Assembly: GCA_030704615.1 (NCBI GenBank) | Contig: CM060731.1 | Location: 83,142,001-83,206,000, forward strand | Origin: Takakia lepidozioides | Taxonomy: Eukaryota; Plantae; Bryophyta | Direction of reading: 5' to 3' | Length of the DNA stretch: 64,000 bases | Shown: positions 29,096-61,829 of the stretch, one piece after another | Position numbering within the stretch: position 1 is the first letter of the stretch | How the letters are laid out: each line of letters starts with the position of its first letter | Position numbers and translations under genes: made by a program | Notes under the pieces: model-generated | Database searches by the model: none | Told to the model about the DNA's origin: nothing | The model's input: only the letters and a program-made list of their open reading frames with translations

Positions 29096-29353
29096 TCGCC
29101 CCCCTAGCTGGTGGATAGGTCCCTCTAACTCCAGATAGCTACAAGATATAATAGCCACAGCCGTACTAAGTCCTCTATCACTGTCCCTATTGTACTCAAC
29201 TCTATCAACCAAGAGGCCGGGTACAAGAGTAGCCCCATCGTTAGTCGCCGTCTTGCAATCTGTGAACTTGAGCCAGGACCTCGTGTGTTCAAGGTCTCCT
29301 AGTAGCTGGGCCTTGCGTTTCTTGTTAGCCTTCCATAGTTGTATCCACTCCCA

Positions 29354-32300
29354 CTATCCAATGCAATGTGGACATAACCAATCCCCATCCAGAACCATCT
29401 CAAGAGGTGGAGTCAAGCATCCCATATGCCAACCTCTAGAGCATCGATCACACACCAGCATGGTGGCTGCCCCTTTAGCAGACCCACACAACATGCACCT
29501 CAAACTTGCAGATACCACTGTCAGGTTTGGGTCAATCCTGCCATCGACATTCGGAAGGTGACATGGCGCACAATTACGCACATGGTCCTTCCAAGTTATG
29601 CCATCCCGACCCTCCAAGACCAAGACGCCTGAGGGCAAGACCTCTCGAACCCTCAAAATAACACGTCCTGCAGTCACATCCACGGTCGTAGGAGCAGTCT
29701 GCTGTAGATAGACATAGTCACCAGGGTTGAATCTCCGAACCCCAGGACGATAGCCCCCACCACGTATGGTAGCATACCTCAATGTATCACGGTGTTGTGC
29801 AATGGCAAGGTTCTCGAAAGCCATGGGCATGACTTTCTTGAACAACTCTGCACGCTGCTCACATGCACGTGCCCACACGTCCGGATCGTCAAGATTAAGA
29901 ACTGTAGCAGCTTCTCTGCGAATGGATGTAGGCAAATCCGACTCTCGGCCAAAGAGAAGAAAGTATGGTGAGAAGGAGGCAAGTGATGCTTGCTTACTGA
30001 ACCTGTAGCCCATGGCTAACCAGGGTAACTGAAGGTCCCAATCTCCTAGGTGTCCCTTCTGCAAGCCATACTTGCGCAAACCCCTCTTTACTGTCTGAAC
30101 AACTCTCTCTGCCAAGCCATCGGCCTCAGGATGATCCCGAGAAGTGGTGCGGTGGTCTATCAAGGCCTTGTCACACAAAGCCTGAAACTCCCCCAAGAAC
30201 TCTCTCCCTTGGTCCGTGAGTACCTCAGCTGGAGCACCGAATCGGCTAAGCACACAATCCAAAAATGCATACGCAGCCCCCTCACTAGCCTTATCAGGCA
30301 ATGGAACCAACTCAATCCACTTGGAGAAGTGCTCCACCATCACCAACACGTACTTGTTGTGGCGCATGGTCAGTGGCAACGGCCCTGCGAAGTCAAGACT
30401 CCACCTGTAGCCCAATCCCATGATCGGAAGAGGGTGCAATTGTGGAGTAGGGGCGTTGAATGAAGCACGCACCTTGTCACACACCATGCACCTAGCCACA
30501 AATTGTTGCACCTCTGTGTGCATACCCCGCCACCAATACTGCCCCTGCTATAGACTATGAGTGCGTCGCACCCCAAAATGCCCCAACTCCTCATGGGCAT
30601 GCCGCAGTAACCGTGCCCGCTGTGTTGGGTGAGGCACAATCCTCACTCGACCATCCTCCCACACTCGGAGCAGATGTGTCCCCTCCCACTTGAACCTCTT
30701 GGCTCGTTGTAGGATCCGATCCCTCTCCTTGGCAGTCACAGTGGCTGCCGTGTCTCCAGTGCGAAGATAGTCCAAGACAGCTGAATCCTCATATATATCT
30801 TTGGCGCCACCTTGCTCATTGCTGGCCTCAGGGTCCTCAGACACTTGATCTACAATCATCCCTATTGCAGGTCCAACCTGGCCTTCCGCTGCCAAGATAC
30901 ACAGAAATGCAGATGCATGCCATCCGGGCACCATCTCCTCGTCCGTCTCACCATGCCACCGAGCTCCAGTGTCATCCTGCTGGCTCGTGCATGGATTGCG
31001 ACTCAACCCATCTGCATTGCCATTGACCAAACCCGGTCGATGCACCACCTGAAAGTCATACTCTTGAAGGATGAGTGCCCACCGTGTTCCCCGTAAGCTT
31101 GTCTGACTCCATCAACCACTTGAGTGGTTGGTGATTCGTGCTAAGGGTGAAGAGATTGCCGTATAGATAGCACCTGAAGTGTGCCACGGCCCACACTGCA
31201 GCTAAGCATTCTCCCTCATATGAGCTATACTTAGACTCTGCAACGTTGTTCGAGCGGCTAGCATAAGCCACTACAAACTTTCTTCCCTCATCATCCACCT
31301 GTGTGAGCACCGCTCCAAACCCCAGCATGCTCCAATCCGTATGCAGCTGAAAAGGACGCCCCCTGATAGGTCGTCTCAAGATGGGCGCCGAGGTCAACCT
31401 CGCCTTGAGCTCTTGAAAAGCTTGTTCTTGCTCATCTTCCCACTGCCACTCCTGGTCCACCTTGGTCAGCTTGGTTAGAGCCTTTGCAATGGCACTAAAT
31501 CCCTTAACAAACCGTCTATAATAGTTTGCTAACCCCATGAAAGCTCGAACTCGGCTCACATCCGTGGGGCGTGGAATCTGTGCAATGGACTCTACCTTAG
31601 TCTGCTGTACCCCCAATCCTCCAGGATATATCATGTGACCCAGATACTCAATCTGGTTGTGGAAAAACTTGCACTTTCCCGGATGTAACTTCAATCCGTG
31701 CGCCCTCAAGCGCTCAAATACCCCCTGAAGGTGTCTCTCATGCTCCTCCACCGTAGCACTAAAGATGATGATGTCATCTATGTAGCACCGAGCAAACTCC
31801 ACCCCTGCTAGAATCCTGTCCATGACTCTTTGAAACTTTGCAAGAGTGTTTTTAAGCCCAAATGGTAAGAACCGCCACTGGTATAGGCAATCCTTCCCGT
31901 GCTCATTGATCCCCCAGAACGCCGTCTTTTGCTTATCCGCCTCTTTGATCGGCAACAGGTGATATCCGGATCGTAAATCCAACGTGCTAAAGACCTTGGC
32001 ATGCCCAATGGCATCAAAGATCTCCTCTGGTGTCGGCATGGCATACCTATCGGACTTGGTCTGACGATTTACAGGCCGGTAATCACCGCACATACGTCTC
32101 TCCGTCCAATTGCCATAGATATCCTTCTTGGCTGACATCACTGTGGCTGAAGCATACTCTCCCCCAGATAGCTCCACCAAACCAGCCTCCCAAAGGTCCT
32201 AAGTTCTCATCTGAATCAAGGACCTCTCCATGTCACTGTATCTATAGGGTCTCCGAAAGATTGGCGTGTCAGTAGCCAATTCAATGCGAATATCTTGACC

Positions 32301-32495
32301 CTTCAGTGCTCCTAAGTCCTTCAAACTGAAGGCAGAGCAATTCCTGTAAGCCCTCAGGAACCGCCGTATACGTCGTCTCTCTCCTTCGGTGACAATGGGT
32401 CCAACATCAGGCTCCCAGTTGTCCTCCCGTGACTGCAACCTTAAGTCCAGTGGGCTTAGAGGTAGAGGACGCGTCCCGTGGTTGCTATGCCGCAA
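29354..32495 (-). pseudogene. pol: RT, RNase H, integrase, C-terminal PHD finger (copy A)
   Basis: YIDDIIIFS; LHTDWS/SSYEGECLA; HEELGH...CMVC; SLDFAG/TDQGREF/GLAER; C4HC3 PHD CMLC...CDRC...WHMGC...WLCPHC. A few stops and frameshifts are present. Confidence 0.93.
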
Positions 32496-35400
32496 CCTCT
32501 TGAGCAGTACTCTCTGCCTGCTCAGTCAATGACAAGGCCTCATCCTGCCCCATCATCTCATCCTTGAGGACCTCATCAACCCGAGAAGAATCCCCAACCT
32601 CATCCATCACAGCTGCCTTGGCTGCCAACTCCCTCTGAACCTCGAGCACCTCCCACGTGTGCCATGGATGTCTACACCCCGTGGTCCTCACCGGCTCGCC
32701 CCCACTTGCTGCCTGTACCGTCTCGGTAGGCAGAGAGATCGTCAAGGGAAGTGCACTTCGCACTCTACGTTGTTCAGCCATAGCCAAGCTGATAATCCAG
32801 GTCAAGCAATTGAGATCCATTGCTTGCCCCAACACCTGACGACGTGATGCCTCTGAAAGAGAAGGCACCGCCGTGGTCCCAGTGGAAAACCCCATAGCCC
32901 GCTCTCGCTCGTCGGCATTAGGCTCCAATAACTGCTGCAACTGAGCATCCCACAGGAGGCCAGGTCCACCATCCCGAAAAGCATGGGATCCTGGGAAGCT
33001 GAGCAGTGTAGGTAATGCTGCTCGTGGTTGACCCACCCTATTGACCACTGCCAAAGGCGAATGGTCATCGTGTCTCACACGTTGAGACTGCCTCCCTGTG
33101 TCTAAAATGTTGTCCACTGTGAGGTGTGTTGGCCGCTGCACGCTTGAGCAGTGCGGGTGGCATCAAGTTAGTCCACCATAACCGTGGACGATGAGCCCGT
33201 GACCCCACTGCAGCTGCATCGAGCAACACTGCTGACCCAAGCCACGACCGGACTTGATGCACACTGGCCATCACCCGGGCCCGAGAATCACCCATCAGTG
33301 GCACATTCTCCAAGATGTATGTTGGAGATACAGCTTGATGAAGCTGCAAGTGACGCAAAATCCGCACCATCTCCCAAAACAGACCCGTCCTCGAGTCTCG
33401 CAATCCATTGCTATGCCCGGCTGATGAATGCCCTTGGCAGGGCCAACCTGCCACTACCAGATCAATGGAGCCAACCTGCCCCAAATCATGCGCCCCCAGC
33501 AATGAAATGTCTGCTGGCAAGGCTTGTTGGTATCCACAAACTGCAGACACTGGCAACAAATCAGGGTACTGCTGTACCAACTAAGCAACATGACGCAGTG
33601 AGACGCGTCGTGCAGTCTCATCCCTCTCCACATACAGGTAACGTCGAACTCATACACCTGCCTGCAGCACTGCAGCCAATCCAGTGCTGATCCCGCCAAA
33701 CAAGTCCAGAAGGCATATGCCTTCATCCGGGCACTGCCACACAAGAGGTGTGGTGTCCAATGGCGACAACTGAAGTGGTCCTGGTGCAATCACCGCACTC
33801 TCCTCTTCTTCTGACGGTACGAAGGCCTCTACCCAGGCTTGTTGCACCCGTCCATCAGCAGCCTGCTGCAAATCCTTGCTCGTTCCCCACAATGGAGTGT
33901 GAGCAACCATGGCAGACAACTCCGTCGTACCATGCATGTCATCCTGCTCTGTTGGAGGTGGCACATCCTCTGCATGGGCATTGCCCTCCAGCAACTCCCC
34001 AGGCCAACTAACTACAACTATGAAGGTGGCTAGTGTTGGCATCTTGCCCCGTTGGGCAGCCGCAATACCCCCAATGAATGTCACAGGGAGCTGTGCATGA
34101 CGACCATCCCTTGATTGCCATCCAGGCCTGTAGGATGCTGACTCCTCCCAAAAGTCCAGGGTGAAGCCCATGGGGTATAACACTGCCCCACCAACAAGGA
34201 CATCGTAAGAGACCGCGTCTGTCACAATGGCCTTGGCTCGCATCACTGAGCCATCTCTAGGATGATCCGGCTGCAGTCTAATGCCCAACTGATGCCGTGT
34301 CATGCGCCGAGCCTGCTCTGATCCTCCCAGAGATGTCTGTATCTGGAAAGGACAAGGCTCCATATCCGCCTCCATGAGGCCCAAACCTGCAATAGCAGCT
34401 CTGCCCAACATCAGTGGCTGAGCTCCCGAGTCCAACAAGACCCGAAGTGGCCGGTACTTCTTGCCTGCCAGTCCACTCAATGAGAAAATGCCATCCTGGT
34501 TGTCTAACAAGACAACTCCAGGTGTCACCATGGCGCGCTCAAAGGCTGGCCTAGCTGGCAGCTCCGTCAACCTGGCAGCTGCAGCTTGCCATGGCGCAGC
34601 CGTGGCAGTCTTGACCCTCAAATCCGAGGATCCCTCTGCACTACACCTTCCACTAACTCCGCAGAAGATGAAGTGACCTCCCCACTCTCACAGAGTGTTG
34701 CTGCTAGTCTGAACACTGCAGCTGGTCTTACCCCCGGCGTCGCAATCATGGTTGCCGAGAACAGTGGGGCTTGACACACAGAGGTGGCTGCCCCCAATAA
34801 CACACCGGCTGCACTAGCCTTGGCAGCAGTTGTCAGTGTTGCACGTGTAGCTCTCCCCAATGGCATAGTAACCTCCGCCTCGGTAACAGTTGGGCGAGAA
34901 CTAGGTGCCATGGATGGCGTCGACACAGTCTCCGCCAATGTGAATGACTGAGGAAGCCTCGCCTGACGGCTTGCCTCCCCACGTTGTGGATCCAATTCCA
35001 CCTCTGCACCTCGTGGCTCAGGAACTCGTGCTGCTCCTCGAGTCACGGCTGCAGCAGACTCCACCTGCACTAGTGGTAGTGCTGCTCCGCACATGAATCC
35101 CATGCCTCCCATATCTCCTCCCTCAGGAGCAGGAGGTGGACCATCCCACCTGGGAGCCGGTACCACCTGAGCTGTAGCCATGGCAGCGAGCCTCTGCTCT
35201 AGCTGCTGAAGCCGGTTGGCCATGCCTTGGTCAACACCCTGACCTCCGCGTCCTTGGCCATGTTGAGCTTGCCCTTGGCCTGCACCTCGTGCCCGGCCAC
35301 CTCGTCCTCTCTGGGCTGGTCCACCTCGCCCCCGGCCACCATTGTTCCCTTGGAACTGGCCTGGGCGCAACTCAGGATGCAAGTCATAACACTGGGCATC

Positions 35401-36661
35401 TCCATGCCCATACTTGCCACAATGCCCACACTGCAACTGTGCAGCTGTGCTTGTGCCGGCCTTTTGCCACTCTCTGGGCAATCTCTCTTGACATGGGGTC
35501 CTCCACATGTCCAACATATCACCCCTGGTTGTTGTTGGCTTGCAAAAGATGCTACTGGCCTCTGCACCCGAGGTCGCCTGTAAACTCCATGAAATTTGGG
35601 TTGGGAAACCTTGGCCCCCTGACCACGCTGTTGGGCAGTCCCTTGTGCCTGTGGGCTGGCAGCTGCGCCTCGTGCAGGCATGTCTTTGCCAAATCCAATG
35701 GTAACAACTCGCTCCTCCACCATGTTGAGCTCAATCCGCTCAGCCAGCAGAAACACATCTGCTAATGTGGGTTGGGCTGCTTGTAACAGGGTTGCATCTC
35801 GCACCCTTCTCCTGAGCTCCTTGTCCAAAATTCCATACCAGAACTGGATTGCCTGAGCTTCAGTAACCCCTTGGGTCACACTTATCAAGCGCCTCATACG
35901 AGTGTAGGCCTCTCGCAAGCTCTCAATGGGTTTGCGCTGGAAGTCTTGCAAATTTCGCAGCTTCTCTGTCCGTATACCTTGGTAGTTCCTCCGCAACTCC
36001 TGGAAGAACTCCACCACCGGGTTGAATCTAGGCACATGTGTTGTAGTCGTGGCAGGAGGAGTAGTAGCACCTTTTGAACTGGTACCACCTGAGAAGTACC
36101 GGCACTACTTGTTCCACTACTAGTGCTAGCAGTGGGAGATATTGGTACTGATGCAGCTACTGGTCGCGTCGTGCCTCGAGTAATGGAGACGTAGTCAGGT
36201 GACCAATACGTCCTCCACTCCTCAATCTCTGCTTCATGTCCTCGCCTGAACTCGTGGTAATCGTCCATAGGCGGGCCTTCCAAATGCTGGAACAGTCCCT
36301 TCCACGCCATGAATGGGGTGAATAGCTGTGGATTGCGCATCTGCTGCAAATCACACCAGCTGTCGAACTCCTGGATAAAGTCATCCAACTTGATTGTGCC
36401 CACAGCTCCAGAGTACCTACGAGGCCCCTTGGTAGCTCCATACATCTTCTCCATGTCGTCCCACAACAATGGCGAATGAAACTGCACACCTGTTGATGAA
36501 GCCTCTGAGTTTGTGTCTGACTCTGCACTAGTTGAGGGTGGAGGTGAAGGTGGTCTGAAACGAACACCTCGTCTGGTGAACCCACTCTCACTGTTACTGC
36601 CTGTAGCCGTACTCCCCTCAGAACCCCTAGGTAACTCCGTGATGACACTCACAATGTACAC
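32485..36661 (-). pseudogene. gag-protease-C5 DNA methyltransferase ORF (copy A), frameshifted
   Basis: Gag core, CWTCGGPHVKRDC and CGHCGKYGHGDAQC knuckles, VLLDSGAQ protease. MTase motifs: LDLFGGISTG, AGWPCQ, ENV, RAHRPRLWWTN, LGQAMD. Confidence 0.9.
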
Positions 36662-37190
36662 CTCCCCTACGTGACACTATAAGGCTCTATTACTGATTCT
36701 AATAGTGACACGGGTGGGCACCTGTTGCAGTTTAAGGGTCATATCCCAGTGGCTCAGGGCACCTGCACCTACATCCACCGCAAGAACTCATATGGTTGGC
36801 TGGTCATCAACCCAGTCTCACCATAGAAGAAACACTGGTGGTCTTGCTGGTCATCACTCCAGCCTCACCACCGACAGCATACTCTAGGATTGACCGGTGA
36901 TCAAATCCGGCCTAATCCCTATGAAAGCAAGTGCCCACACAAAACCAACATGGTGCACAGTCAAGCATGCAGGTGTTGGGGGGGATCCAAACACAAGAAA
37001 TCAAAACATCAACACCCCAACACCAAAATCCATCTGCAATGCTGATCTTGCAGAATATCCCAGCCCAAAACCCCGGACTGACTGGCCTCCACCAAGAGAG
37101 GCTTTGGCAACTACAAGTACAAAGTAATGAAAATAGTAAAGAGAGGGAGGGGAAGAATAGAAGCCCGACCAAGCAAGATCTAATCCTGAT

Positions 37191-37940
37191 CTATGCTATC
37201 AACTGCCAGACTTCTCTCAAAGTGCCTCGCTCTGCATGATGGTAAGGTGTAGGCGGTACATCTATGTCCAGAAACCTGCCACTAACCTTGTCCCAAGCTA
37301 CAGTAGCTCGCTCTAACCAACCCTCCTCCTCTTTCTGCCTGGTAGAGACAAAGCAATACTCCCCTATCTCCCGCTCACTGAACACTAAAGAAAACAAAGG
37401 TAGGGTCTGATAATCTCTCAACTCGAAAGCTTTGAGACGGTTGTGGGTGTTCTCATTGCGGATGACTGCATCTCCTTCAAGCAAAACAAACTTGTCATTG
37501 CTAATGAACCCCCGCTCATGATTGCCTTGTGCAGAGCGTGTCCGGCTGCAACCATGTCTGATTGCACAAACTTGTGTAGCTCTTGCTCCTCTGCTCCAGT
37601 ATACCACGGCCTTGTGGCTGAACACCTTGGTACCCGGGGCTGTCTTTGGCTGTGTTCCAAGCCTAGCTTTTACCCACTTTGGTATTTCACCTACAGCTGC
37701 AGAACTGCTGGCTCCAACAGAGTTCTGACTGTCCAAAGCGATATTGAGACCCTCAACGCCAACTACAACAGTTTGTTGTCCACTGCTAATGTCTGACTCC
37801 CAGTATGCAATCAACTCGTCCAACTGTTCTCCACTCAAATCAGTCTGAGTTCCTTGGGAAACATAAATCTTGTCCCCTTGTGTGCACAGGCTAAGAGACG
37901 AGACCTGCCCTTCAATTACGTCCTCGTTTTCCCCAGCCAT
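37191..37940 (-). CDS. Extra upstream ORF of retroelement (249 aa, unknown function), copy A
   Basis: Intact, same length and near-identical to 52442-53191. Confidence 0.75.
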   Translation of the reverse strand: MAGENEDVIEGQVSSLSLCTQGDKIYVSQGTQTDLSGEQLDELIAYWESDISSGQQTVVVGVEGLNIALDSQNSVGASSSAAVGEIPKWVKARLGTQPKTAPGTKVFSHKAVVYWSRGARATQVCAIRHGCSRTRSAQGNHERGFISNDKFVLLEGDAVIRNENTHNRLKAFELRDYQTLPLFSLVFSEREIGEYCFVSTRQKEEEGWLERATVAWDKVSGRFLDIDVPPTPYHHAERGTLREVWQLIA

Positions 37941-40350
37941 ACAAGGAGGACATCCACAGATTTGTCTCTCATATAGACCAGAACAGGTTCTAAAAACAGA
38001 ATTGTGGATCTTTCACGGCACACTCACACTCTAAAAATTCCATAGATTTTTAGCAGAGTCCCAAAAACAAAAACCCTAAACCCTAAACAAAAACCAGGTC
38101 TAGATAGGTAGATATTCCCTTTCTATAGCTATCCCCTCAAAAACTGAGTCAAACGGAGCTCATTTGACAAAGATGTGAACAATTTGGCTTTAAATCATTT
38201 AAATTAGATCAAAAGGGCCCTTTTTTTTTTTTTTTTAAAGGTTTTCGAATTTAAAAATTTAAAGTTACACCCAAAATATCTGGTAATTGGTTCCCGGTCC
38301 CCTAAGTTCTATATGGTTTCCTAGGTTCCCTGGCCACGTGCCCTATAATTCCTAGGATTTCAGTTGTGTTTACAAATGCACCCCCCACAGCTCTTGGTTA
38401 CCAGTGACCTGCTCTCCTCCAGTCGAGATCCGTAGCTATGCCGAGCCTTAATCCTTTGCACCAATATTCCCAACAAAAACAGGAGCACTTACAATGCAAC
38501 CCCGGAAAGCACCAGAGCTAACTAGCTTTGATCAAGAACGCTTACAGCCCTTCATGCGTGCTGATTTTTCAAGGTGGCAACAACAAATCTGCTATCACTG
38601 ATTGTGTAAGCCTTTACATGGAGTTGGCACAGGCTGCCCCCAAGTTCAGGATTGTAAACATAGACCGAGCAGGTCGTGTAGTGAGCTGGGCCCCTTCAGC
38701 TCATATCTCGCTCATACACCAAGTGTCACCTGGTGAGTCCACAGTCTCCCACTCTCATGCTCTCCTGCAACAAACACAACCTTGAGGTTCAATCCTCCAA
38801 AACCTGAGGATCGCCAGCCTGGGAGGTTGACACTGTCAGAAAGCGCCCCTCCCTTCCAGCAAATGGCCTAAGATGTGGTGACCTCGTCAATCCTTCCCTA
38901 GACTGCTCTTGCTTGGCCTTTCTCACAGCTGCCTGCACCTCTCAATCTGTGTGCCCATCCCCCTTCATAATGAGTATGACACACCCATCATCGTGCACAA
39001 CCTTTCATGCAAATGAGAGGGCATATACAATGTCCTTTGGGGTCCTCTAGTTCCAGTCTGGCACCTCATGGCCCATTCCAATTTCCAGGACATGAACACC
39101 ATGCAGAATGTCCGCTATGAGGGCGTTTGCGTAGGGTCCCAAGGGGGATTTTGCGCCAGCTTTGTATGGAATGAGGGCCAATGGTGTCACAGACTTCAGC
39201 CACACGTCAATAATCTCCTGCGAAACCCGCCAGGTGCTGGAACTTGATCTATCATGACCTTGTAATCTTCATACAAGCAAGTGACCCATGTCTTCCGAGG
39301 TTGTTCTTCTCCCAACGGCCGTGCAGCAAAATGGTTTGCCAAACAAATTCCGCTTGCTCCCTGAAAGGTTCAGACCCGCCAACTGCAAAGATATAAGTCG
39401 CCCTGCACCCGAATCTCTCTCCCCGTCGGTGGAGGCCTCCTGCATAGACTCGTCAGCTGTGGGCGTTCGACTACCAGGGCTGCCTGATATACTGGCTTTC
39501 AAAGCCTTCTTGCCCCCCTTTCAGGTTCGTTGCGGTTTGTTAGCCTCCCTCAGCAGCTGTTCAGCTTCATCTGCTCCTCTGGCGGCGGCTGCAGCGGACA
39601 CATTAGCTTGAACAAGGTGCCTGTGTGCCTGTGTTTCCTTGTCATGTAGACTCTTGGCTGTTGATGCGCTTGAGAACTCGTTGTGTTCCTCCATTTCTTC
39701 CAAGTGTTGGTACGATGTCGGGTTTGCAATCAAGCCACCAGGGGCAGTTTGGATTGGAAAACTGGCTGAATGACTTTAGTTGTTTCATGTTGAACGCTGT
39801 CACCTCCGTGAGCTCACTCACCCAAGTCAGCATCATGTTGGGTGTGGAGAGGATCAGCTTTATCTCCTGTCGTAAGTACTAAAGCACATTCGCTTTGCAG
39901 GTTGCAACGCGCCCTGCTGCTCGCTTAGCTCCACACTCCTGCGCATTTTCTCCTTTTCTCCGGCAGGTGCAGCAGCAGCACCTCCACCAGAGGAAGCCAC
40001 CACAACCAGGGATGACGCCACCCCAAACTGTTTGCACTTCGTGATCCAGCCACTGCCAGCCACTCCCGACTGTTTTGGGTCCGAATCCAAAATCTTACAC
40101 GAGTCTCGTCTCCCTCCGTCCAAGTGAAAGAGAGTAGGGAATTGCGGGGCCAACTATCAAAGTCTTCAACCTCCCCACCTCTTGGTTTTCAAACTCACGA
40201 GCAGAGACGACAACTAGATCTACGCGCACAGCCCATGGCAACAGGAAGGCCAGATGGACTCCTGCCCCAAGATATATATTATAATAGTGCTAAAACAAAC
40301 ATTGTATCTAGCTTAGCACTAGAAAACTAGATAGCCTCATCTCTCTCGAG

Positions 40351-40672
40351 TGATAAGAAAGCTAAAGGACACACTGTTCGCACAAGAAACATGAAATCCC
40401 TCAACATCACTCTTTCAGATAATAGTCGAGCCAGGGGCACCCCAAGCTATGGGGACTCCACCCCACAACAACCTATCCTCCCATCATAAGTACACTCAGT
40501 TCTAAACGATGAAGGAGCTCGGTCACGCAGGCTCAACTCGAGAGAGATGACGCTGTTCAGGTGTCAAACTAAACTTGACACCTGACTTAACACTTGGCTT
40601 AAATCCAAGTGTTAAATACAAATAACTAGCTTTATTCTAGTTAGTTTCACACTGTGCTTGTTTAACTTGACA
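40351..40672 (-). repeat. Terminal segment A of copy A (self-complementary PBS at 40336-40350)
   Basis: Homologous to 49989-50345 and 61394-61743. Reads TGTCAAG...TTATCA on the minus strand. Confidence 0.9.
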
Positions 40673-49988: not shown

Positions 49989-50345
49989 TGTCAAGTTAAA
50001 TAAGCACAGTGTGAAAACAGCTAGAATAAAACTAGTTATTTGTATTTAACACTTGGATTTAGGTCAAGTGTTAAATCAGGTGTCAAGTTTAGTTTGACAC
50101 CTGGTCTGTCTTATCTTCACGAGAGCGGCAGTCGCGCGGCTCATCTCTCTCGAGTTGAGCCTGCGCGACCGAGCTCCTGCATTGTTGAGGACTGAGTGTG
50201 CTTATGATGGGAGTGTAGGTTGTTGTGGGGTGGAGTCCCCATAGCTTGGGGTGCCCCTGGCTCGACTTCTATTTTAAAGAGTGATCTTGAGGGATTGCAT
50301 ATTTCTTGTGTTGAGAGTGTGTGTCCTTTACAAGTTTGTTTATCA
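49989..50345 (+). repeat. Terminal segment A1 of copy B
   Basis: Direct repeat of 61394-61743. Confidence 0.92.
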
Positions 50346-50361
50346 CTCGAGAGAGATGAGC
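50346..50361 (+). promoter_or_regulatory. Putative self-priming primer-binding site
   Basis: ACTCGAGAGAGATGAGC (50345-50361) is the exact reverse complement of 50139-50155 inside A1. There is no TGG tRNA-type PBS. Confidence 0.7.
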
Positions 50362-52441
50362 TCTTACCTGTGAGTGCAAGGTAGGAGTTGAGGGTTAGCA
50401 CTTGTATGATTACCTGTGTGAGAGTAGTGCTTAGTTTAAGAAGCTTTAAAATATATATATATATATATATATGCAGGTTTCGATCAGCGTTGGTTCTGGC
50501 ATAAGGCCGCCGGGCAGGACGGAGCTACACTGCATGGAAGCAGCCTTCGTTTTGGTCAGTGAGGAGATATCATGGTGGAGCAGCAGGATGATGCGCAAAT
50601 GTAAGGAAAACTGTGTCTGTTGGTAGCTGCTGACAACCGCAACTCTGTCCCTGGACTTCTTCTCCGGAGGTGGAAGCCTGTGTGCAGCGTGCATGCAAGA
50701 GTGTGGTTGTGACAGGGGAACAAGCGCTTGCGGTTGCATTACTACTGCAAGTTGGGCACTCGGTGCGTCGCTATAACTGCAATTGTACAGGAGCACTGTG
50801 AGAGGCAGATTGTTCTGCAGCCTTGCTATACCTGGTCAGTCCAATGGTGACACATCCATACCTTGTTAAAGCAATATGGACAGTTGTCGATGAGGACGGC
50901 TCTATGAAGGACACTGCGAGCTAAGAAGGGCTCGGGTACAAAAGCACACACTGGAGCGTTTAAGCAAGTTAGGGCGGGAAAAAGAAAAACAGGCCCAAAT
51001 AGCCAAGCACATGAAGTAGTGAATGTTGATGGAAGAAACCTGTGACACTCCCATTTTGCTGGAGGAGATCGTTGATTAATTGATGTCCCCGGAGCTTCAG
51101 GTGCAGGCCCTACAATCGCTGGCTAACAAGACTGATTTACAAGCAAAACCTGCAGGGCAATCTGCCGAGAGCCTCATCTGCTTCTCGGAGGGGTTTCCGT
51201 AAATGCCCAGCTTGTGCCCTGCCTGGGCAATAGGGGGAATCCCGCCTTCAGAACTTGGCTTTGGTGTACCAGAGAACTCTGCAACCTTTGGCGTTCCTTC
51301 TTTCCCAGGCCCTTGTGCCGACCTTCTCCAATGTGTCCTTGTCTCTCTCACCATCTGCTGCCTCGGAAAGCTCGCAGTGGAGACCTGCTTGCGGGCTGTT
51401 TTCTGGATTTAGAGTGGGTTTGAAGTATAGAAAAGAACTTGGAGATTACAGTGGGCAGGTCGCAGCCGGTGCGTCCTTGACGTGGAAGGCCACAACGGAG
51501 AGGAATGTGGTAGCCAGGGCTGCTGGAGATGCCCCAGAGTCAGAGGTCGAGATTGTTCCTGAGGTCACCATCCCAGCCATAGTTTCCCTCAAGTCAAAAG
51601 CATAATTGTTAAAGAAGAAGGCTAAACGATTGGAGCTTCGAAGGAAGAGGCTGGTGCGCAAGCGCAAGTTAAGGAAGAAAGGCCAATGGCCTCCTTCCAA
51701 AATGGCCAAAATCAAGAATGTATAGGGCCTCAGGAGGGTTCAAGGATAAGAAGAAAAGAAAGTTATCACGTCTGCGGGAGGTCCAACAGGTCCAAGGAGC
51801 ACACGTACAACACCACAGTAGAACCACAGACATCAAAAAAAAAAGCAGCTCAATTCTCAAACTTCACACACAACAGGTGTCGCAATCAACGGCCAAGCTC
51901 TTGTATGCTCTGCTCTGCTCCTGTTGTGCTGAATGTTGGTGAAGTGAAGCTGTGGTTCCGATGTGGCAGATGTGTTGTGCAAGTCCAGCAACCATCCACG
52001 AATCGTTCGATTGCAGGCCGCCTGTCCATAAGCCATGAGGGTGTTGCGCAGTGCATCTCTTGATCTGCTCTTGAAATCGCCCCTACCTGGACGAACTACC
52101 TGGACGTGTTGGGAACTCGTAGGTGACTTGGGAGCAGTTATAATGACAAAAGCGTTTTGGTGTTAAAAAAAAAAAAAACAAAGCCTTTTTGATCTAATTT
52201 AAATGTTTAAAGAGCCTGGTTGGTCATATCTTTGTCAAATGAGCTCCGTTTGACTCAGTTTTTGAGGGGATAGCTGCAGAAAGGGGAAATCTACCTATCT
52301 AGACCTGGTTTCTGTTTTTGGGACTCTGCTAAAAATCTATGGAATTTTTAGAGTGTGAGTGTGCCATGAAAGATCCACAATCCTGTCTCTAGAACCTGTG
52401 CTGGTCTATATTAGAGACAAATCTGTGGATGTACTCCTTGT

Positions 52442-53191
52442 ATGGCTGGGGGAAATGAGGACGTCGTTGAAGGGCAGGTCTCTTCTCTTAGCCTGTGTAC
52501 CAAAGGGGACAAGATTTATGTTTCCCAAGGAACTCAGACTGATTTGAGTGGAGAACAGTTGGACGAGTTGATTGCATATTGGGAGTCAGGCATTAGCAGT
52601 AGACAACAGACTGCTGTAGTTGGCATTGAGGGCCTCAATATCGCCTTGGACAGTCAGAACTCTGTTGGAGCCAGCAGTTCTGCAGCTGTAGGTGAAATAC
52701 CAAAGTGGGTGGAAGCTAGGCTTGGAACACAGCCAAAGACAGCCCCGGGGACCAAGGTGTTCAGCCACAAGGCCGTGGTGTACTGGAGCAGAGGAGCAGG
52801 AGCTACACAAGTTTGTGCAATCAGACATGGTTGCAGCCGGATACGCTCTGCACAGGGCAACCACGAGCGGGGGTTCATCAGCAATGACATGTTTGTTGTG
52901 CGTGAAGGAGATGCAGTCATTCGCAATGAGGACACCCGCAACCGTCTCAAAGCTTTCGAGTTGAGAGACTATCAGACCCTACCTTTGTTTTCTTTAGTGT
53001 TCAGTGAGCGGGAGATAGGGGAGTATTGCTTTGTCTCTACCTGGCAGAAAGAGGAGGAGGGTTGGTTAGAGCGAGCTACTGTAGCTTGGGACAAGGTTAG
53101 TGGCAGGTTTCTGGACATAGATATACCTCCTACACCTTACCATCATGCAGAGCGAGGCACTTTGAGAGAAGTCTGGAAGTTGATAGCATAG
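52442..53191 (+). CDS. Extra upstream ORF of retroelement (249 aa, unknown function), copy B
   Basis: Intact and conserved with copy A. Confidence 0.75.
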   Translation: MAGGNEDVVEGQVSSLSLCTKGDKIYVSQGTQTDLSGEQLDELIAYWESGISSRQQTAVVGIEGLNIALDSQNSVGASSSAAVGEIPKWVEARLGTQPKTAPGTKVFSHKAVVYWSRGAGATQVCAIRHGCSRIRSAQGNHERGFISNDMFVVREGDAVIRNEDTRNRLKAFELRDYQTLPLFSLVFSEREIGEYCFVSTWQKEEEGWLERATVAWDKVSGRFLDIDIPPTPYHHAERGTLREVWKLIA

Positions 53192-53709
53192 ATCAGGGTT
53201 AGATCTTGCTTGGGCGGGCTTCTATTCTTCCCCTCCATCTCTGTACTATTTTCATTACCTTGTACTTGTAGTTGCCAAAGCCTCTCTTGGTGGAGGCCAG
53301 TCAGTCCGGGGTTTTGGGCTGGGATATTCTGCAGGATCAGCGTTGCTGCTGGATTTTGGTGTGGGGTGTTGATGTTTTGATTTCTTGTGTTTGGATCCCC
53401 CCCAACACCTGCATGCTTGACTGTGCGCCATGTTGGTTTTGTGTGGGCGCTTGCTTTCATAGGGATTAGGCCGGATTTGATCACCGGTCAATCCTAGAGT
53501 ATGCTGTCGGTGGTGAGGCTGGAGTGATGACCAGCAAGACCACCAGTGTTTCTTCTATGGTGAGGCTGGGTTGATGACCAGCCAACCATAGGAGTTCTTG
53601 CGGTGGATGCAGGTGCAGGTGCCCTGAGCCATTGGGATATGACCCTTAGACTGCAACAGGTGCCCACCCGTGTCACTATTAGATTAGTACTAGAGCCTTA
53701 TAGTGTCAC

Positions 53710-56700
53710 GTGGAGGAGGTGCACATTGTGAGTGTCATTACGGAGTTACCCAAGGGTTTTGAGGGGAGTACGGCTACAAGCAGTGACAGTGAGAGTGGGT
53801 TCACAAGACGAGGTATTCGGTTCAGACCACCTTCACCGCCACCTTCAACTATTGTAGCGTCAGACACAGACTCGGAGGCTTCATCAACAGGTGTGCACTT
53901 TCATTCGCCATTGTTGTGGGACGACATGGAGGAGATGTATGGAGCTACCAAGGGGCCTCGTAGGTACTCTGGAGCTGTGGGCACAATCGAGTTGGATGAC
54001 TTTATCCAGGAGTTCGACAGCTGGTGTGATTTGCAGCAGATGCGCAATCCACAGCTATTCACCCCATTCATGGCGTGGAAGGGACTGTTCCAGCATTTGG
54101 AAGGCCCGCCTATGGACGATTACCACGAGTTCAGGCGAGGACATGAAGCAGAGATTGAGGAGTGGAGGATGTATTGGTCACCTGACTACGTCTCCATTAC
54201 TCGAGGCACGACGCGACCAGTAGCTGCATCAGTACCAATAGCTCCCACTGCCAGCACTAGTAGTGGAGCAAGTAGTGCTGGTACTTCTGAAGGTGGTACC
54301 AGTTCAAAAAGTGCTTCTCCTGCCACGACTACAACACATTGCCAAGATTCAACCCGGTGGTGGAGTTCTTCCAGGAGTTGCGGAGGAACTACCAAGGTGT
54401 ACGGACAGAGAAGCTGCGAAGTTTGCAAGACTTCCAGCGCAAACCCAGTGAGAGCCTGCGAGAGGCGTACACTCGTATGAGGCGCTTGATAAGTGTGACC
54501 CAAGGGGTTACTGAAGCTCAGGCAATCCAGTTTTGGTATGGAATTCTGGACAAGGAGCTCAAGAGAAGGGTGCGAGATGCAACCCTGTTACAAGCAGCCC
54601 AACCCACATTAGCAGATGTGTTTCTGCTGGCTGAGCGGATTGAGCTCAACATGGTGGAGGAGCGAGTTGTTACAATTGGATTTGGTAAGGACATGCCTGT
54701 ACGGGGCACAGCTGTCAGCCCACAAGCACAAGGGACTGCCCAACAGCGTGGTCAGGGGGGCAAGGTTGCCCAGCCCAAGTTCCATGGAGCTTACAGGGGA
54801 CCTCAGGTGCAGAGGCCCGTGGCATCTTTTGCAGGCCAACAGCAACCAGGGGTGATATGTTGGACATGTGGAGGACCCCATGTCAAGAGAGATTGCCCAG
54901 AGAGTGGCAGAAGGCCGGCACAAGCACAGCCTGCACAGTTGCAGTGTGGGCATTGTGGCAAGTATGGGCATGGAGATGCCCAGTGTTATGACTTGCATCC
55001 TGAGTTGCGCCCAGGCCAGTTCCAAGGGAACAATGGTGGCCGGGGGCGAGGTGGACCAGCCCAAAGAGGACGAGGTGGTCGGGCACGAGGTGCAGGCCAA
55101 GGGCAACCTCCACATGGCCAAGGACGCGGAGGTCAGGGTGTTGACCAAGGCATGGCCAATCGGCTTCAGCAGCTAGAGCAGAGGCTCGCTGCCATGGCTA
55201 TAGCTCAGGCGGTACCGGCTCCCAGGCGGGATGGTCCACCTCCTGCTCCTGAGGGAGGAGATATGGGAGGCATGGGATTCATGTGCGGAGCAGCACTACC
55301 ACTAGAGCAGGTGGAGTCTGCTGCAGCCGTGACTCGAGGAGCAGCACGAGTTCCTGAGCCACGAGGTGCAGAGGTGGAGTTGGATCCACAACGTGGGGAG
55401 GCAAGCCGTCAGGCGAGGCTGCCTCAGTCATTCACCTTGGCGGAGACAGTGTCAACGCCATCCATGGCACCTAGTTCTCGCCCGACTGTTACCGAGGCGG
55501 AGGTTACTATGCCATTGGGGAGAGCTACACGTGCAGCACTGACACCTGCTACCAAGGCTAGTGCAGCCGGTGTGTTATTGGGGGCAGCCACCTCTGTGTG
55601 TCAAGCCCCCTGTTCTCGGCGAACCATGATTGCGACGCCGGGAGTGAGACCAGCTGCAGTGTTCAGACTAGCAGCAACACTCTGCGAGAGTGGAGAGGTC
55701 ACTTCATCTTCTGCGGAGTTAGTGGAAGGTGTAGTGGCAGAGGGATCCTCGGATTTGAGGGTCAAGACTGCCACGGCAGCGCCCTGGCAAGCTGCAGCTG
55801 CCAGATTGACGGAGCTGCCAGCTAGGCCAGCCTTTGAGCGCGCCATGGTGACACCTGGAGTTGTCTTGTTAGACAACCAGGGAGGCATTTTCACTTTGAG
55901 TGGACCGGCAGGCAAGAAGTACCGGCCACTGCGGGTCTTGTTGGACTCAGGAGCTCAGCCACTGATGTTGGGCAGAGCTGCTATTGCAGGTTTGGGCCTC
56001 ATGGAGGCGGATATGGAGCCTTGTCCTTTCCAGATACAGACATCTCTGGGAGGATCAGAGCAGGCTCGCGGCATGACACGGCATCAGTTGGCTATTAGAC
56101 TGCAGCCGGATCATCCTGTAGATGGCTCAGTGATGCGAGCCAAGGCCATTGTGACAGACGCGGTCTCTTACGATGTCCTCGTTGGTGGGGCAGTGTTATA
56201 CCCCATGGGCTTCACCCTGGATTTCTGGGAGGAGTCAGCATCCTACAGGCCTGGATGGCAGTCAGGGGATGGTCGCCGTGCACAGCTCCCTGTGACATTC
56301 ATTGGGGGTATTGCAGCTGCTCAGCGGGGCAAGATGCCAACACTAGCCGCCTTCACAGCTGCAGTCAGCTGGCCTGGAGAGTTGCTGGAAGGCAATGCCC
56401 ATGCAGAGGATGTGCCACCTCCAGCAGAGCAGGATGACATGCATGGTACGGCGGAGTTGCCTGCCATGGTTGCTCACACTCCGTTGTGGGGTACGAGCAA
56501 GGATTTGCAGCACGCTGCTGATGGACGGGTGCAACAAGCTTGGGTAGAAGCTTTTGTACCGTCAGGAGAGGAGGAGAGTGCGGTGATTGTACCAGGGCCA
56601 CCTCAGTTGTCGCCATTGGACACCACACCTCTTGTGTGGCAGCGACCGGATGAAGGCATATGCCTTCTGGACTTATTTGGCGGGATCAGCACTGGATTGG

Positions 56701-57904
56701 CTGCAGTGCTGCAGGCAGGTGTACGAGTTCGACGTTACCTGTATGTGGAGAGGGATGAGACTGCACGACGCGTCTCACTGCGCCATGTTGCTCAGATGGT
56801 GCAGCAGCACCCTGAGTTGTTGCCGGTGTCTGCAGTTCGTGGATATCAACAAGCCTTGCCAGCAGACATTGCGTTGCTGGGGGCGCAGGATTTGGAGCGG
56901 TTGGCTCCATTGATCTGGTAGTGGCAGGTTGGCCCTGCCAAGGGCATTCATCAGCCGGGCATGGCAATGGATTGCGAGACTCGAGGACGGGTCTGTTTTG
57001 GGAGATGGTGCGGATTTTGCGCCACTTGCAGCTTCATCAAGCTGTATCTCCGGCATACATCTTGGAGAATGTGCCACTGATGGGTGATTCTCGGGCCAGG
57101 GTGATGGCCAGTGTGCATCAAGTCCGGTCGTGGCTTGGGTCAGCAGTATTGCTGGATGCAGCTGCAGTGGGGTCACGGGCTCATCGTCCACGACTATGGT
57201 GGACTAACTTGATGCCACCCGCACTGCTCAAGCGTGCATTTGATGGGGTGCAGCGGCCAGCACACCTCACCGTGGATGGCATTTTGGACACAGGAAGGCA
57301 GTCTCAACGTGTGAGACACGATGACCGTTCGCCTTTGGCAGTGGTCAACAGGGTGGGTCAACCACGAGCAGCATTACCTACACTGCTCAGCTTCCCAGGA
57401 TCCCATGCTTTTCGGGATGGTGGACCTGGCCTCCTGTGGGATGCTCAGTTGCAGCAGTTAGTGGAGCCTAATGCCGACGAGCGAGAGCGGGCTATGGGGT
57501 TTTCCACTGGGACCACGGCGGTGCCTTCTCTTTCTGAGGCATCACGTCGTCAGGTGTTGGGGCAAGCAATGGATCTCAATTGCTTGACCTGGATTGTCAG
57601 CTTGGCTATGGCTGAGCAACGTAGAGTGCGGAGTGCACTTCCCTTGATGGTCTCTCTGCCTACCGAGACGGTACAGGCAGCGAGTGGGGGCGAGCCGGTG
57701 AGGACCACGAGGTGTAGACATCCATGGCACATGTGGGAGGTGCTCGAGGTTCAGAGGGAGTTGGCAGCGAAGGCAGCTGTGATGGATGAGGTTGGGGATT
57801 CTTCTCGGGATGAGGAGGTTCTCAATGATGAGATGATGGGGCAGGATGAGGCCTTGTCATTGACTGAGCAGGAAGGGGGTACTGCTCAAGAGGTTGCAGC
57901 ATAG
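53710..57904 (+). CDS. gag-protease-DNMT3-like C5 methyltransferase polyprotein (copy B; two small frameshifts)
   Basis: ORFs 53710-54480, 54339-56921 and 56921-57904. MTase domain ~56655-57610 carries motifs I, IV (PCQ), VI (ENV), VIII (RxR), IX (ERAMGF) and X (LGQAM). Confidence 0.9.
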
Positions 57905-60900
57905 CAACCACGGGACGCGTCCTCTACCTCTAAGCCCACTGGACTTAAGGTTGCAGTTACGGAGGACAATTGGGAGCCTGATTTGGACCCATTGTCACCG
58001 GAGGAGAGAGACGACGTATACGGCGGTTCCTGAGGGCTTACAGGAATTGCTTTGCCTTCAGTTTGAAGGACTTGGGAGCACTGAAGGGTCAAGAGATCCG
58101 TATTGAGTTGGCCACTGACACGCCAATCTTTCGGAGACCCTATAGATACAGTGACATGGAGAGGTCTTTGATTCAGATGAGGACTCAAGATCTCTGGGAG
58201 GCAGGTTTGGTGGAGCTCTCTGGTGGAGAGTATGCTTCAGCCACAGTGATGCCAGCTAAGAAGGATGTCTATGGCAATTGGACGGAGAGACGTATGTGCG
58301 GTGATTACCGGCCTGTAAATCGTCAGACCAAGTCCGATAGGTATGCCATGCCAACACCAGAGGAGATCTTTGATGCCATTGGGCATTCCAAGGTCTTTAG
58401 CACGTTGGATTTACGATCCGGATATCACCAGTTGCCGATCAAGGAGGCGGATAAGCAAAAGACGGCATTCTGGGGGATCAATGAGCACGGGAAGGATTGC
58501 CTATACCAGTGGCGGTTCTTACCATTTGGGCTTAAAAACGCTCCCGCTGAGTTTCAAAGAGTCATGGACAGGATTCTAGCAGGGGTGGAGTTTGCTCGGT
58601 GCTACATAGATGACATCATCATCTTTAGTGCTACGGTGGAGGAGCATGAGAGACACCTTCAGGGGGTATTTGAGCGCTTGAGGACGCACGGATTGAAGTT
58701 ACATCCGGGCAAGTGCAAGTTTTTCCACAACCAGATTGAGTATCTGGGGTCACATGATATATCCTGGAGGATTGGGGGTACAGCAGACTAAGGTAGAGTC
58801 CATTGCACAGGTTCCACGCCCCACGGATGTGAGCCGAGTTCGAGCTTTCATGGGGTTAGCAAACTATTACAGACGGTTTGTTAAGGGATTTAGTGCCATT
58901 GCAAAGGCTCTAACCAAGCTGACCAAGGTGGACCAGGAGAGTGGCAGTGGGAAGATGAGCAAGAACAAGCTTTTCAAGAGCTCAAGGCGAGGTTGACCTC
59001 GGCGCCCATCTTGAGACGACCTATCAGGGGGCGTCCTTTTCAGCTGCATACAGATTGGAGCATGCTGGGGCTTGGAGCGGTGCTCACACAGGTGGATGAT
59101 GAGGGAAGAGAGTTCGTAGTGGCTTATGCTAGCCGCTCGAACAATGCTGCAGAGTCTAAGTATAGCTCATATGAGGGAGAATGCTTAGCTGCAGTGTGGG
59201 CCGTGGCACACTTCAGGTGCTATTATACGGCAATCTCTTCACCCTTGTCACGGATCACCAACCACTCAAGTGGTTGATGGAGTCAGACAAGCTTACGGGG
59301 AAGCTTGCACGGTGGGCACTCATCCTTCAAGAGTATGACTTTCAGGTGGTGCATCGACCGGGTTTGGTCAATCGAAATGCAGATGGGTTGAGTCGCAATC
59401 CATGCACGAGCCAGCAGGATGACACTGGAGCTCGGTGGCATGGTGAGACGGACGAGGAGATGGTGCCCGGATGGCATGCATCTGCATTTCTGTGTATCTT
59501 GGCAGCGGAAGGCCAGGTTGGACCTACAACAGGGATGACTGTAGATCAAGTGTCTGAGGACCCTGAGGCCAGCAATGAGCAGGGTGGCGCCAAAGATATA
59601 CATGAGGATTCAGTTGTGTTGGACTACCTCCGCAGTGGAGACACGGCAGCCACTATGACTGCCAAGGAGAGGGATCGGATCCTACAACGAGCCAAGAGGT
59701 TCAGGTGGGAGGGGACACACCTGCTCCGAGTGTGGGAGGATGGTCGAGTGAGGATTGTGCCTCACCCAACACAGCGGGCACGGTTAGTGCGGCATGCCCA
59801 TGAGGAGTTGGGGCATTTTGGGGTGCGACGCACTCATAGTCTACTGCAGGGGCAGTATTGGTGGCGTGGTATGCACACAGAGGTACAATATTTGTGGCTA
59901 GGTGCATGGTGTGTGACAGGGTGCGTGCTTCATTCAACGCCCCTACTCCACAATTGCACCCTCTTCCGATCATGGGATTGGGCTACAGGTGGAGTCTTGA
60001 CTTCGCAGGGCCGTTGCCACTGACCATGCGCCACAACAAGTACGTGTTGGTGATGGTGGAGCACTTCTCCAAGTGGATTGAATTGGTTCCATTGCCTGAT
60101 AAGGCTAGTGAGGGAGCTGCGTATGCATTCCTGGATTGTGTGCTTAGCCGATTCGGTGCTCCAGCTGAGGTACTCACGGACCAAGGGAGAGAGTTCTTGG
60201 GGGAGTTTCAGGCTTTGTGTGACAAGGCCTTGATAGACCACCGCACCACTTCTCGGGATCATCCTGAAGCCGATGGCTTGGCAGAGAGAGTTGTTCAGAC
60301 AGTAAAGAGGGGTTTGCGCAAGTATGGCTTGCAGAAGGGACACCTAGGAGATTGGGACCTTCAGTTACCCTGGTTAGCCATGGGCTACAGGTTCAGCAAG
60401 CAAGCATCACTTGCCTCCTTCTCACCATACTTTCTTCTCTTTGGCCGAGAGCCGGATTTGCCTACATCCATTCGCAGAGAAGCTGCTACAGTTCTTAACC
60501 TTGACGATCCGGACGTGTGGGCACGTGCATGTGAGCAGCGTGCAGAGTTGTTCAAGAGAGTCATGCCTATGGCTTTCGAGAACCTTGCCATTGCACAACA
60601 CCGTGATACGTTGAGGTATGCTACCATACGTGGTGGGGGCTATCGTCCTGGGGTTCGGAGATTCAACCCTGGTGACTATGTCTATCTGCAGCAGACTGCT
60701 CCTACGACCCTGGATGTGACTGCAGGACGTGTTATTTGAGGGTTCGAGAGGTCTTGCCCTCAGGCGTCTTGGTCTTGGAGGGTCGGGATGGCAATTGGAA
60801 GGACCATGTGCGTAATTGTGCGCCATGTCACCTTCCGAATGTCGATGGCAGGATTGACCCAAACCTGGCAGTGGTATCTGCAGGTTTGAGGTGCATGTTG

Positions 60901-61037
60901 TGTGGGTCTGCTAAAGGGGCAGCCACCATGCTGGTGTGTGTGATCGGTGCTCTAGAGGTTGGCATATGGGATGCTTGACTCCACCTCTTGAGATGGTTCC
61001 GGATGGGGATTGGTTATGTCCACATTGCATTGGATAG
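57905..61037 (+). CDS. pol: RT, RNase H, DDE integrase, PHD finger (copy B; several small frameshifts)
   Basis: Same motifs as copy A. The indels fall at different positions in the two copies, so a consensus is open. Confidence 0.9.
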
Positions 61038-61290
61038 TGGGGAGTGGATACAACCATGGGAGGCTAACAAGAAACGCAAGGCCCAGCTACTAGGAGACCT
61101 TGAACACACGAGTCCTGGCTCAAGTTCACAGATTGCAAGACGGCGACTAACGATGGGGCTACTCTTGTACCCGGCCTCTTGGTTGATAGAGTTTGAGTAC
61201 GATAGGGACAGTGATAGAGGACTTAGTACGGCTGTGGCTATTACTTACATCTTGTAGCTATCTGGAGGTAGGGGGACCTATCCACCAGCT

Positions 61291-61300
61291 AGGGGGGCGA
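61291..61300 (+). promoter_or_regulatory. Polypurine tract
   Basis: AGGGGGGCGA immediately precedes segment B in both copies. Confidence 0.75.
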
Positions 61301-61829
61301 TTGTGCAGACTACTTTATTGTGCATATATGTGTGGTGTGGTTTGGACAGCGATGTAGTTGTAGTTGTGTAGCGATATGTATGCGCACGACAGCTGTCAAG
61401 TTAAATAAGCACAGTGTGAAAAAGCTAGAATAAAACTAGTTATTTGTATTTAACACTTGGATTTAGGTCAAGTGTTAAATCAGGTGTCAAGTTTAGTTTG
61501 ACACCTGGTTGTCTTATCTTCACGAGAGCGGCAGTCGCGCGGCTCATCTCTCTCGAGTTGAGCCTGCGCGACCGAGCTCCTGCATTGTTGAGATCTGAGT
61601 GTGCTTATGATGGGAGTGTAGGTTGTTGTGGGGTGGAGTCCCCATAGCTTGGGGTGCCCCTGGCTCGACTTCTATTTTAAAGAGTGATCTTGCGGGATTT
61701 CATATTCTTGTGTGAGAGTGTGTCCTTTACTAGTTTGTTATCATTGTGCTAGACTACTTTATTGTGCATATATGTGTGGTGTGGTTTGGACAGCGATGTA
61801 GTTGTGTAGCGATATGTATGCGCACGACA
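61301..61829 (+). repeat. 3' terminal structure B1 (61301-61391) - GC - A2 (61394-61743) - B2 (61744-61829)
   Basis: Read directly from the sequence. The B1/A2 junction is the palindrome GACAGCTGTC (61388-61397). The A2/B2 junction is TTATCA|TTGTG. Confidence 0.92.

Follow-up and report, generated by a model that had tools for sequence, protein, structure and literature searches.

Retrotransposons that carry a C5 cytosine methyltransferase have been known since 2018, and why they should encode the very kind of enzyme by which they are normally silenced has stayed an open question, in part for want of genetics in the known hosts. The charophyte example, KnitGypsy-Dnmt3 of Klebsormidium nitens, combines Gypsy domains with repeats of the DIRS type and has a ratio of nonsynonymous to synonymous substitution rates (Ka/Ks) below 0.2 (de Mendoza 2018, PMC5890265, Fig. 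4c legend). In SymbioDIRS-Dnmt3, the enzyme methylates CG de novo in yeast (PMC5890265); methylation of the element's own cDNA is a hypothesis already proposed in the same paper. The DNA analysed here, a stretch of 64,000 nucleotides from the Takakia lepidozioides assembly GCA_030704615.1 (contig CM060731.1, positions 83,142,001 to 83,206,000; hereafter the window), holds two copies, A and B, of a Ty3/Gypsy retrotransposon with a DNMT3-like methyltransferase (DNMT) domain. Like KnitGypsy-Dnmt3, the window's element has Gypsy domains, DIRS-type split repeats, an intronless and unpermuted DNMT3-like domain and the marks of purifying selection (PMC5890265). A preliminary description of this DNA had called the concept known from charophytes, which KnitGypsy-Dnmt3 bears out, and had thought that its combination with split long terminal repeats (LTRs) might be new; that part does not hold, as the same combination is on record for the K. 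nitens element (PMC5890265).

The window's element is a Gypsy element with a DDE integrase and DIRS-like repeats (Table 1). It has the order gag, protease (PR), reverse transcriptase (RT), RNase H, integrase, together with TG...CA ends and a short target duplication; with the DNMT and a PHD finger included, gag-PR-DNMT is followed by RT-RNaseH-integrase-PHD. The gag and protease matches to Pfam are weak and below the cut-off in copy B. Duplications of 4 bp flank all three elements of which both ends were read (copy A, copy B and locus L045), that of copy B being CTTA at 49985-49988 and 61830-61833. The split-repeat arrangement A1-B1-A2-B2 is found in copy B and L045, and in part in L001 and L043. 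Copies A and B lie in opposite orientations and share 95.3% identity across 9.27 kb, and the family is abundant in its host: 22,434 contigs of one run align on 1.8 kb, a count of contigs and not of copies. A tyrosine-recombinase element of the DIRS/Ngaro kind is ruled out by the rve integrase and the 4-bp duplications; no tyrosine recombinase was matched among the 22 window open reading frames (ORFs) scanned with Pfam.

The six methyltransferase motifs singled out in the preliminary description are all in place, in copy B (LDLFGGISTG 56667-56696, DLVVAGWPCQ 56912-56941, ENV 57065-57073, AHRPRLWWTNL 57179-57211, ERERAMGF 57479-57502 and RRQVLGQAMD 57545-57574) and on the reverse strand in copy A, where they run from 33709 to 32815; both copies score above the cut-off of Pfam PF00145 (E-values 1.2e-12 and 3e-14). 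Motifs I (FxG), IV (PC), VI (ENV), VIII (RxR), IX and X of C5 methyltransferases are thereby present, split by lesions that had been overlooked: neither window copy encodes a whole enzyme. In copy B, a one-base gap at ~56899 separates motifs I-III from motif IV; copy A is interrupted by stops at 33652 and 33583 and has lost 14 nt near 33141. The gap in B is not a family trait, because contigs of other host copies carry an extra base there, and it is either private to this copy or an assembly error. Judged by their reading frames, both window copies are dead in the DNMT domain.

What kind of enzyme did the family acquire? By sequence, DNMT3A is the best match of the window domain among solved structures; in the ESM Atlas the matches were generic C5-methyltransferase clusters only. 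The fold was modelled on the open-frame relative L004, which is 68% identical to the C-terminal part of the window's domain, rather than on a broken window copy. The model, built from a 109-sequence alignment, has a mean predicted confidence (pLDDT) of 95.6 and DNMT3A/B/C as its best match (Foldseek E-value 1.8e-19); in structure comparison it reaches Z 29.7 at a root-mean-square deviation of 2.5 with 277 aligned residues, and the first 34 rows are all DNMT3, followed by a bacterial CpG methyltransferase (Z 25.5) and HhaI (Z 24.1). The family profile gives DNMT3A 87 bits, DRM2-type enzymes 42-49 and HhaI 37; four phage methyltransferases score 57-70, the top one about 20 below DNMT3A. DNMT3-like, the name already given in the preliminary description, is thus a fair label for a domain closest to DNMT3 in fold and profile and with unpermuted motifs; it rests on fold and profile, as the trees contain no cellular DNMT3. 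A DRM identity is ruled out by the linear motif order, in which motif I precedes IV-X: DRM enzymes are circularly permuted, and DRM2 matches in two stretches with a lower score. No targeting module of the PWWP, ADD or DUF3444 kind accompanies the domain. Its target-recognition region gave no sequence alignment to DNMT3A, and a preference for CG therefore cannot be assumed.

The catalytic Cys, described earlier as intact, is kept in 213 of the 215 full-length family domains, and the ENV Glu and the motif I Gly in all 215, among domains that are only 35-50% identical to each other. Comparing nonsynonymous with synonymous rates (dN/dS) among copies, as the preliminary description had proposed, points to purifying selection on the family and not to neutral evolution. 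Between copies A and B the ratio is 0.26 over 323 DNMT codons (21 synonymous and 16 nonsynonymous changes; Fisher p 6e-5), similar to 0.31 in gag and 0.29 in PR; it is 0.13 and 0.11 for the open-frame pairs L032/L033 and L032/L034, and 0.09-0.26 between lineages. Among the frequent variants listed in the domain, 17 of 28 are synonymous (from 40 of 102 variants). These patterns suggest that the open-frame members of the family encode an enzyme that is very probably active.

The domain does lie between protease and RT in both copies, as first described, but an in-frame TAG that separates it from the RT ORF had been missed (B 57902-57904, A 32487-32485). In both copies this stop stands 95 codons past the DNMT domain, reads TAG CAA CCA and places the enzyme on the Gag side; UAG-CAR-YYA is the read-through consensus of tobamoviruses (PMC3542737). 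The site is fixed: positions 57902-57910 show no variant at 2% or above in four runs (749, 752, 5 and 2 contigs, from three samples at most), while the neighbouring positions 57898, 57899 and 57912 do vary. A contig from one run, presumed to be RNA, also spans the stop, which is no evidence of transcription. The linker between DNMT and RT is covered in 38 of 80 metagenome loci, and 35 of these 38 have a stop followed by CARYYN at the homologous site, six of them with strict CARYYA. An in-frame UAG with CAR-YYA is thus found in copies A and B and in L004, L032, L033, L034, L039 and L051. The three exceptions are L030 and L038, in which TAG is kept with the next C changed, and L062, with another context. 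In unbroken loci the linker is a multiple of three and the frame is kept across the stop: L032 has, in a single frame, an ORF1 of 1369 aa, TAG CAG TTA and an ORF2 of 1047 aa, and L034 has TAG CAA TCA followed by 1047 aa. The second codon after the stop switches between Pro, Leu and Ser but retains YYA; the signal therefore lies at the RNA level. Within element B, CARYYA follows one of 394 stop triplets, that of ORF1, and most gag-PR-DNMT proteins in the databases end within ~200 aa of motif X. TAG CAA CCA is, by these comparisons, a strong candidate for a site of read-through.

A stem predicted 3' of the stop is a hint only: single folds of six sequences give z from -0.6 to -3.0, and the segment after the stop ranks 1, 3, 1, 1 and 7 among 5-29 segments in five elements; RNAalifold on 15 sequences found no consensus pair after the stop, and the stem registers differ. 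Other endings of ORF1 also occur. In L062 (848-860), TAG GGG TGC is followed by an in-frame RT-RH-IN-PHD ORF of 1194 aa, resembling type III (UAG-G) read-through. With the proteins P0340, P0346, P0355, P0365, P0366 and P0382-P0386, this locus represents a sister branch, which includes the Klebsormidium protein and ends ~10 aa past the DNMT domain.

How widely is this arrangement distributed? The preliminary description had guessed that the presence of such an element in this host might be new; this stands, and the range is wider than guessed. Named relatives occur in Calypogeia, Marchantia polymorpha, M. paleacea, Riccia, three Sphagnum species, Closterium, Klebsormidium nitens and Scenedesmus, that is, in liverworts and peat mosses as well as algae, and the window's DNMT is 73-75% identical to Calypogeia and Marchantia genes. 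A profile search gives 510 clusters at 50% identity (E-value <=1e-30). In 91 of the best 150 of these, the DNMT sits between RNase H and integrase; seven end after PR-DNMT, three run into RT and 49 are fragments. In the DNMT tree (189 of 232 domains, thinned to 80% identity; built with FastTree and rooted at the midpoint, no outgroup), the PR-DNMT forms make up one clade (support 0.996) with the K. nitens protein inside it, and the window groups with liverwort and Sphagnum genes (1.0). Trees of RT-RNase H and of DNMT, drawn for 51 of 91 elements and likewise with no outgroup, give the same main groups; this agreement fits a single capture of the DNMT followed by a move of the domain, in a direction that such trees do not give. 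The second order, RT-RH-DNMT-IN-PHD, is seen in L055, L058 and P0264, the only named member being from the chlorophyte Scenedesmus sp. PABB004; a PHD finger at the C-terminus of the integrase (L032:8032-8187; Table 1 for the window) is present in all three domain orders.

What would a retrotransposon gain from such an enzyme? A single explanation, held here with confidence only a little better than even, joins the above observations as follows: (i) ORF1 would be the main product, so that protease and DNMT are made at the level of Gag and co-packaged; (ii) occasional read-through of TAG CAA CCA would supply RT, RNase H and the integrase with its PHD finger; (iii) the element's protease would release the DNMT, which would methylate the new double-stranded cDNA before integration; and (iv) insertions would arrive already methylated, resembling host heterochromatin, with the predicted PHD finger steering integration. 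That cDNA is the substrate is itself somewhat favoured. A broader picture is more tentative and somewhat less likely than not: split-repeat Gypsy elements, in hundreds of families that range from chlorophytes through to liverworts and peat mosses, may form a green-plant-wide clade that has retained a single captured DNMT3-like enzyme from before the origin of land plants; the enzyme may have moved between two positions in the polyprotein; in the streptophyte branch it may have come under a read-through switch of the plant-virus type; and particles loaded with methyltransferase may deliver pre-methylated cDNA.

Several observations weigh against this explanation, beginning with the stop. The 38 loci amount to about five independent lineages, many being near-identical copies; 29 of the 38 differ from CARYYA at the last base, and relatives P0089, P0294 and P0034 have no stop at all. 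In the commonest family the stop context is CAACCC, directly followed by ATG (27 of 38 loci, nine of the 27 with TAA), where re-initiation is possible. Pol might then be made in another way, by splicing over the stop, from an internal start or by re-initiation, with the CARYY context a relic; the divergent TAG GGG TGC of L062 fits this too, and in Candida Tca2 a gag stop of similar appearance gave no read-through when placed in a yeast reporter (PMC2194720). Such a route is improbable: in the window's family, L004/L039, L032, L034 and L051, no ATG directly follows the motif, and it is hard to square with a frame that is kept across the stop and an RNA pattern that persists while the encoded residues change.

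The enzyme raises a second doubt. The K. nitens Gypsy DNMT produced no methylation in yeast, a result that its authors call inconclusive (PMC5890265), and in close pairs of decayed moss-like copies the DNMT dN/dS is 0.4-2.9, mostly not distinguishable from neutral, as expected after insertion. With both window copies broken, and with most Gypsy elements managing without a DNMT, the domain could be a DNA-binding or structural module, or a passenger that no longer methylates. This is very unlikely: it would leave unexplained the near-invariance of Cys, Glu and Gly across domains so far diverged, the low dN/dS between lineages and a predicted fold that is complete and confident.

The third difficulty concerns the substrate. 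No footprint of self-methylation was found: the observed/expected CpG ratio is 0.51 in the element and 0.53 in non-element DNA at 40.7-49.9 kb, and CpG depletion, not being distinct from that of the flanking DNA, was discarded as a trace. The C-to-T rates between copies are 0.039 in CG, 0.041 in CHG and 0.020 in CHH contexts, and the equality of the first two fits ordinary host methylation. Nor would dosage at the Gag level be needed across the clade, given the relatives that have no stop and the 91 of 150 clusters with the DNMT between RNase H and integrase. An active enzyme might work on chromatin instead of particle cDNA: entering the nucleus alone or along with the integration complex, it would methylate the insertion site, other copies or host genes, and so damp transposition or host defence. 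In type II elements the DNMT does adjoin the integrase, and production in bulk would suit a role in trans. The solved PHD fingers closest to that of a relative are those of CHD4, PHF12, PHF21A, KDM5 and ATXR5, echoing the ADD domain of cellular DNMT3; PHD fingers of the CHD4, PHF21A, KDM5 and ATXR5 type mostly read unmethylated H3K4. In type I elements, however, the enzyme belongs to the Gag-PR product and is joined to the PHD-bearing integrase only in read-through products, and it has none of the targeting modules PWWP, ADD or DUF3444. Although roles of this kind are listed in de Mendoza 2018 (PMC5890265), action on chromatin is the less probable course, and methylation of packaged cDNA is preferred here.

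Table 1. Features of the two retrotransposon copies in the window (window coordinates)
Feature	Position	Strand	Details
Copy B, whole Ty3/Gypsy element	49989..61829	+	split direct repeats A1-internal-B1-A2-B2; TG...CA ends
Repeat A1, copy B	49989..50345	+	A2 = 61394-61743, 96.6% identical
gag (zinc knuckle) and aspartic protease part of ORF1, copy B	53704..56300	+	frameshifted; protease motif 55938-55955
DNMT3-like C5 cytosine methyltransferase domain, copy B	56625..57616	+	unpermuted motif order; one-base gap ~56899
In-frame TAG ending ORF1, then CAA CCA (candidate CARYYA read-through motif), copy B	57902..57910	+	
Long-range stem 3' of the stop, predicted	57915..58017	+	suggestive only; single folds, no alignment consensus
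RT, RNase H and integrase (H2C2 + rve) of ORF2, copy B	57982..60739	+	frameshifts; RT YIDD 58603-58614
PHD finger, integrase C-terminus, copy B	60892..61030	+	frameshifted in B; Pfam PF00628 E-value 5.9e-10 in copy A
3' repeats, copy B	61300..61829	+	B1 61300-61391, A2, B2 61743-61829
Copy A	29011..40672	-	A1-internal-B only; 4-bp target duplication AGGA
DNMT domain, copy A	32770..33735	-	two stops, 14-nt deletion; TAG CAACCA 32487-32479

The ends and internal regions of the element have features of their own. The B1/A2 junction of copy B is a perfect palindrome, GACAGCTGTC, at 61388-61397, composed of the right end, two bases and the left end; it recurs at L001:12345, L034:8235 and L045:10347, and L043:7715 has GACAATTGTC. 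Such a junction resembles a circle junction that an integrase might cut symmetrically, an idea from retrovirus work that serves here as an analogy only. Copy A, though of the form A1-internal-B only, is flanked by a clean duplication of 4 bp. In their 5' internal regions, A (38238-40336) and B (50360-52163) show no match to each other, the region of B ending in a run of A at ~52165-52180, and copy A has, at ~38076-38095 on the reverse strand, 20 additional bases that include two plant-telomere-like TTTAGGG units. Elsewhere in the window, units of ~53 bp, built around a palindromic core, form an array at 13170-14700 and 20487-21190, with dispersed copies nearby. An ORF of 595 aa on the reverse strand (41443-43662) is rich in Cys and His and has no Pfam match; the frame after it holds a D..D..CxxH pattern like that of Mutator-like transposases. 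Duplicated and inverted fragments at 46006-49988, with a weak zf-RVT match (E-value 0.042), are probably the ends of long interspersed elements (LINEs), and copy B is inserted into one of them. No housekeeping gene was recognisable by eye in the ORFs outside the elements, 22 ORFs having been covered by the Pfam scan.

These relatives change where the question can be asked. Those in Marchantia polymorpha bring it to a model plant with methylation mutants, in which, if the reading of a green-plant-wide clade is true, self-methylation of retrotransposon cDNA becomes directly testable. One review has it that land plants such as tracheophytes lack methylase-bearing transposons (PMC6338049), a statement that the bryophyte records narrow. 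Several liverwort and Sphagnum gene models annotated as DNA methyltransferase are pieces of this retrotransposon. The 2018 survey covered Physcomitrella, Selaginella and five angiosperms, and no liverwort or Sphagnum (PMC5890265); in a survey of plant LTR elements, the main text contains neither 'methyltransferase' nor 'PHD' (PMC6317226). No report of such elements in land plants, or of a read-through site in them, was found in the titles, abstract openings and text passages covered, which did not extend to subscription journals, theses and Repbase. Capture of a DNMT and split repeats were thus already known; not found in print were the range in land plants, the existence of two domain orders and the conservation of a stop of the read-through type.

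REM1 of Chlamydomonas, a green-lineage LTR retrotransposon reported by Perez-Alegre in 2005 and said to carry a PHD finger, is likened to the window's element by description only. It is cited in PMC8557442 and PMC6673714. In the K. nitens protein GAQ93235.1 (P0366) the domains run gag-PR-DNMT; the protein shows 44% identity over 236 aa and falls into the DNMT clade of the window (0.996, midpoint root); its record bears no element name, and it is likely a member of KnitGypsy-Dnmt3. That element is hosted by an alga, the window's likely by a bryophyte-like land plant, and the paper puts its DNMT, together with RT and RNase H, in the Pol ORF (PMC5890265), whereas a stop and the CARYYA motif separate them in the window. 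GAQ93235.1, labelled 'partial', and unnamed relatives end ~12 aa past the domain, and a stop in common with the window's element is therefore possible. SymbioDIRS-Dnmt3 and SymbioLINE-Dnmt also carry a C5 methyltransferase on a retrotransposon (PMC5890265), but they belong to other retroelement classes and are independent captures, unlike the window's element with its DDE integrase and 4-bp duplications. Cellular DNMT3 (human DNMT3A/B; moss PpDNMT3b, PMC6453930) shares the fold, the catalytic motifs and the unpermuted order with the domains of the window's family, which are only 20-26% identical to it and lack PWWP, ADD and DUF3444. The in-frame UAG with its CARYYA hexamer is that of tobamovirus type I read-through (PMC3542737), and a stop that divides the structural ORF from the enzymes is shared with murine leukaemia virus (MuLV), SIRE1 and Tca2 (PMC2194720; SIRE1 as cited there). 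In these three the stop follows gag; in the window's element it follows protease and DNMT, and both would be made at the Gag level, with RT and integrase supplied by read-through, which makes the conserved stop a first clue to the dosage of the enzyme.

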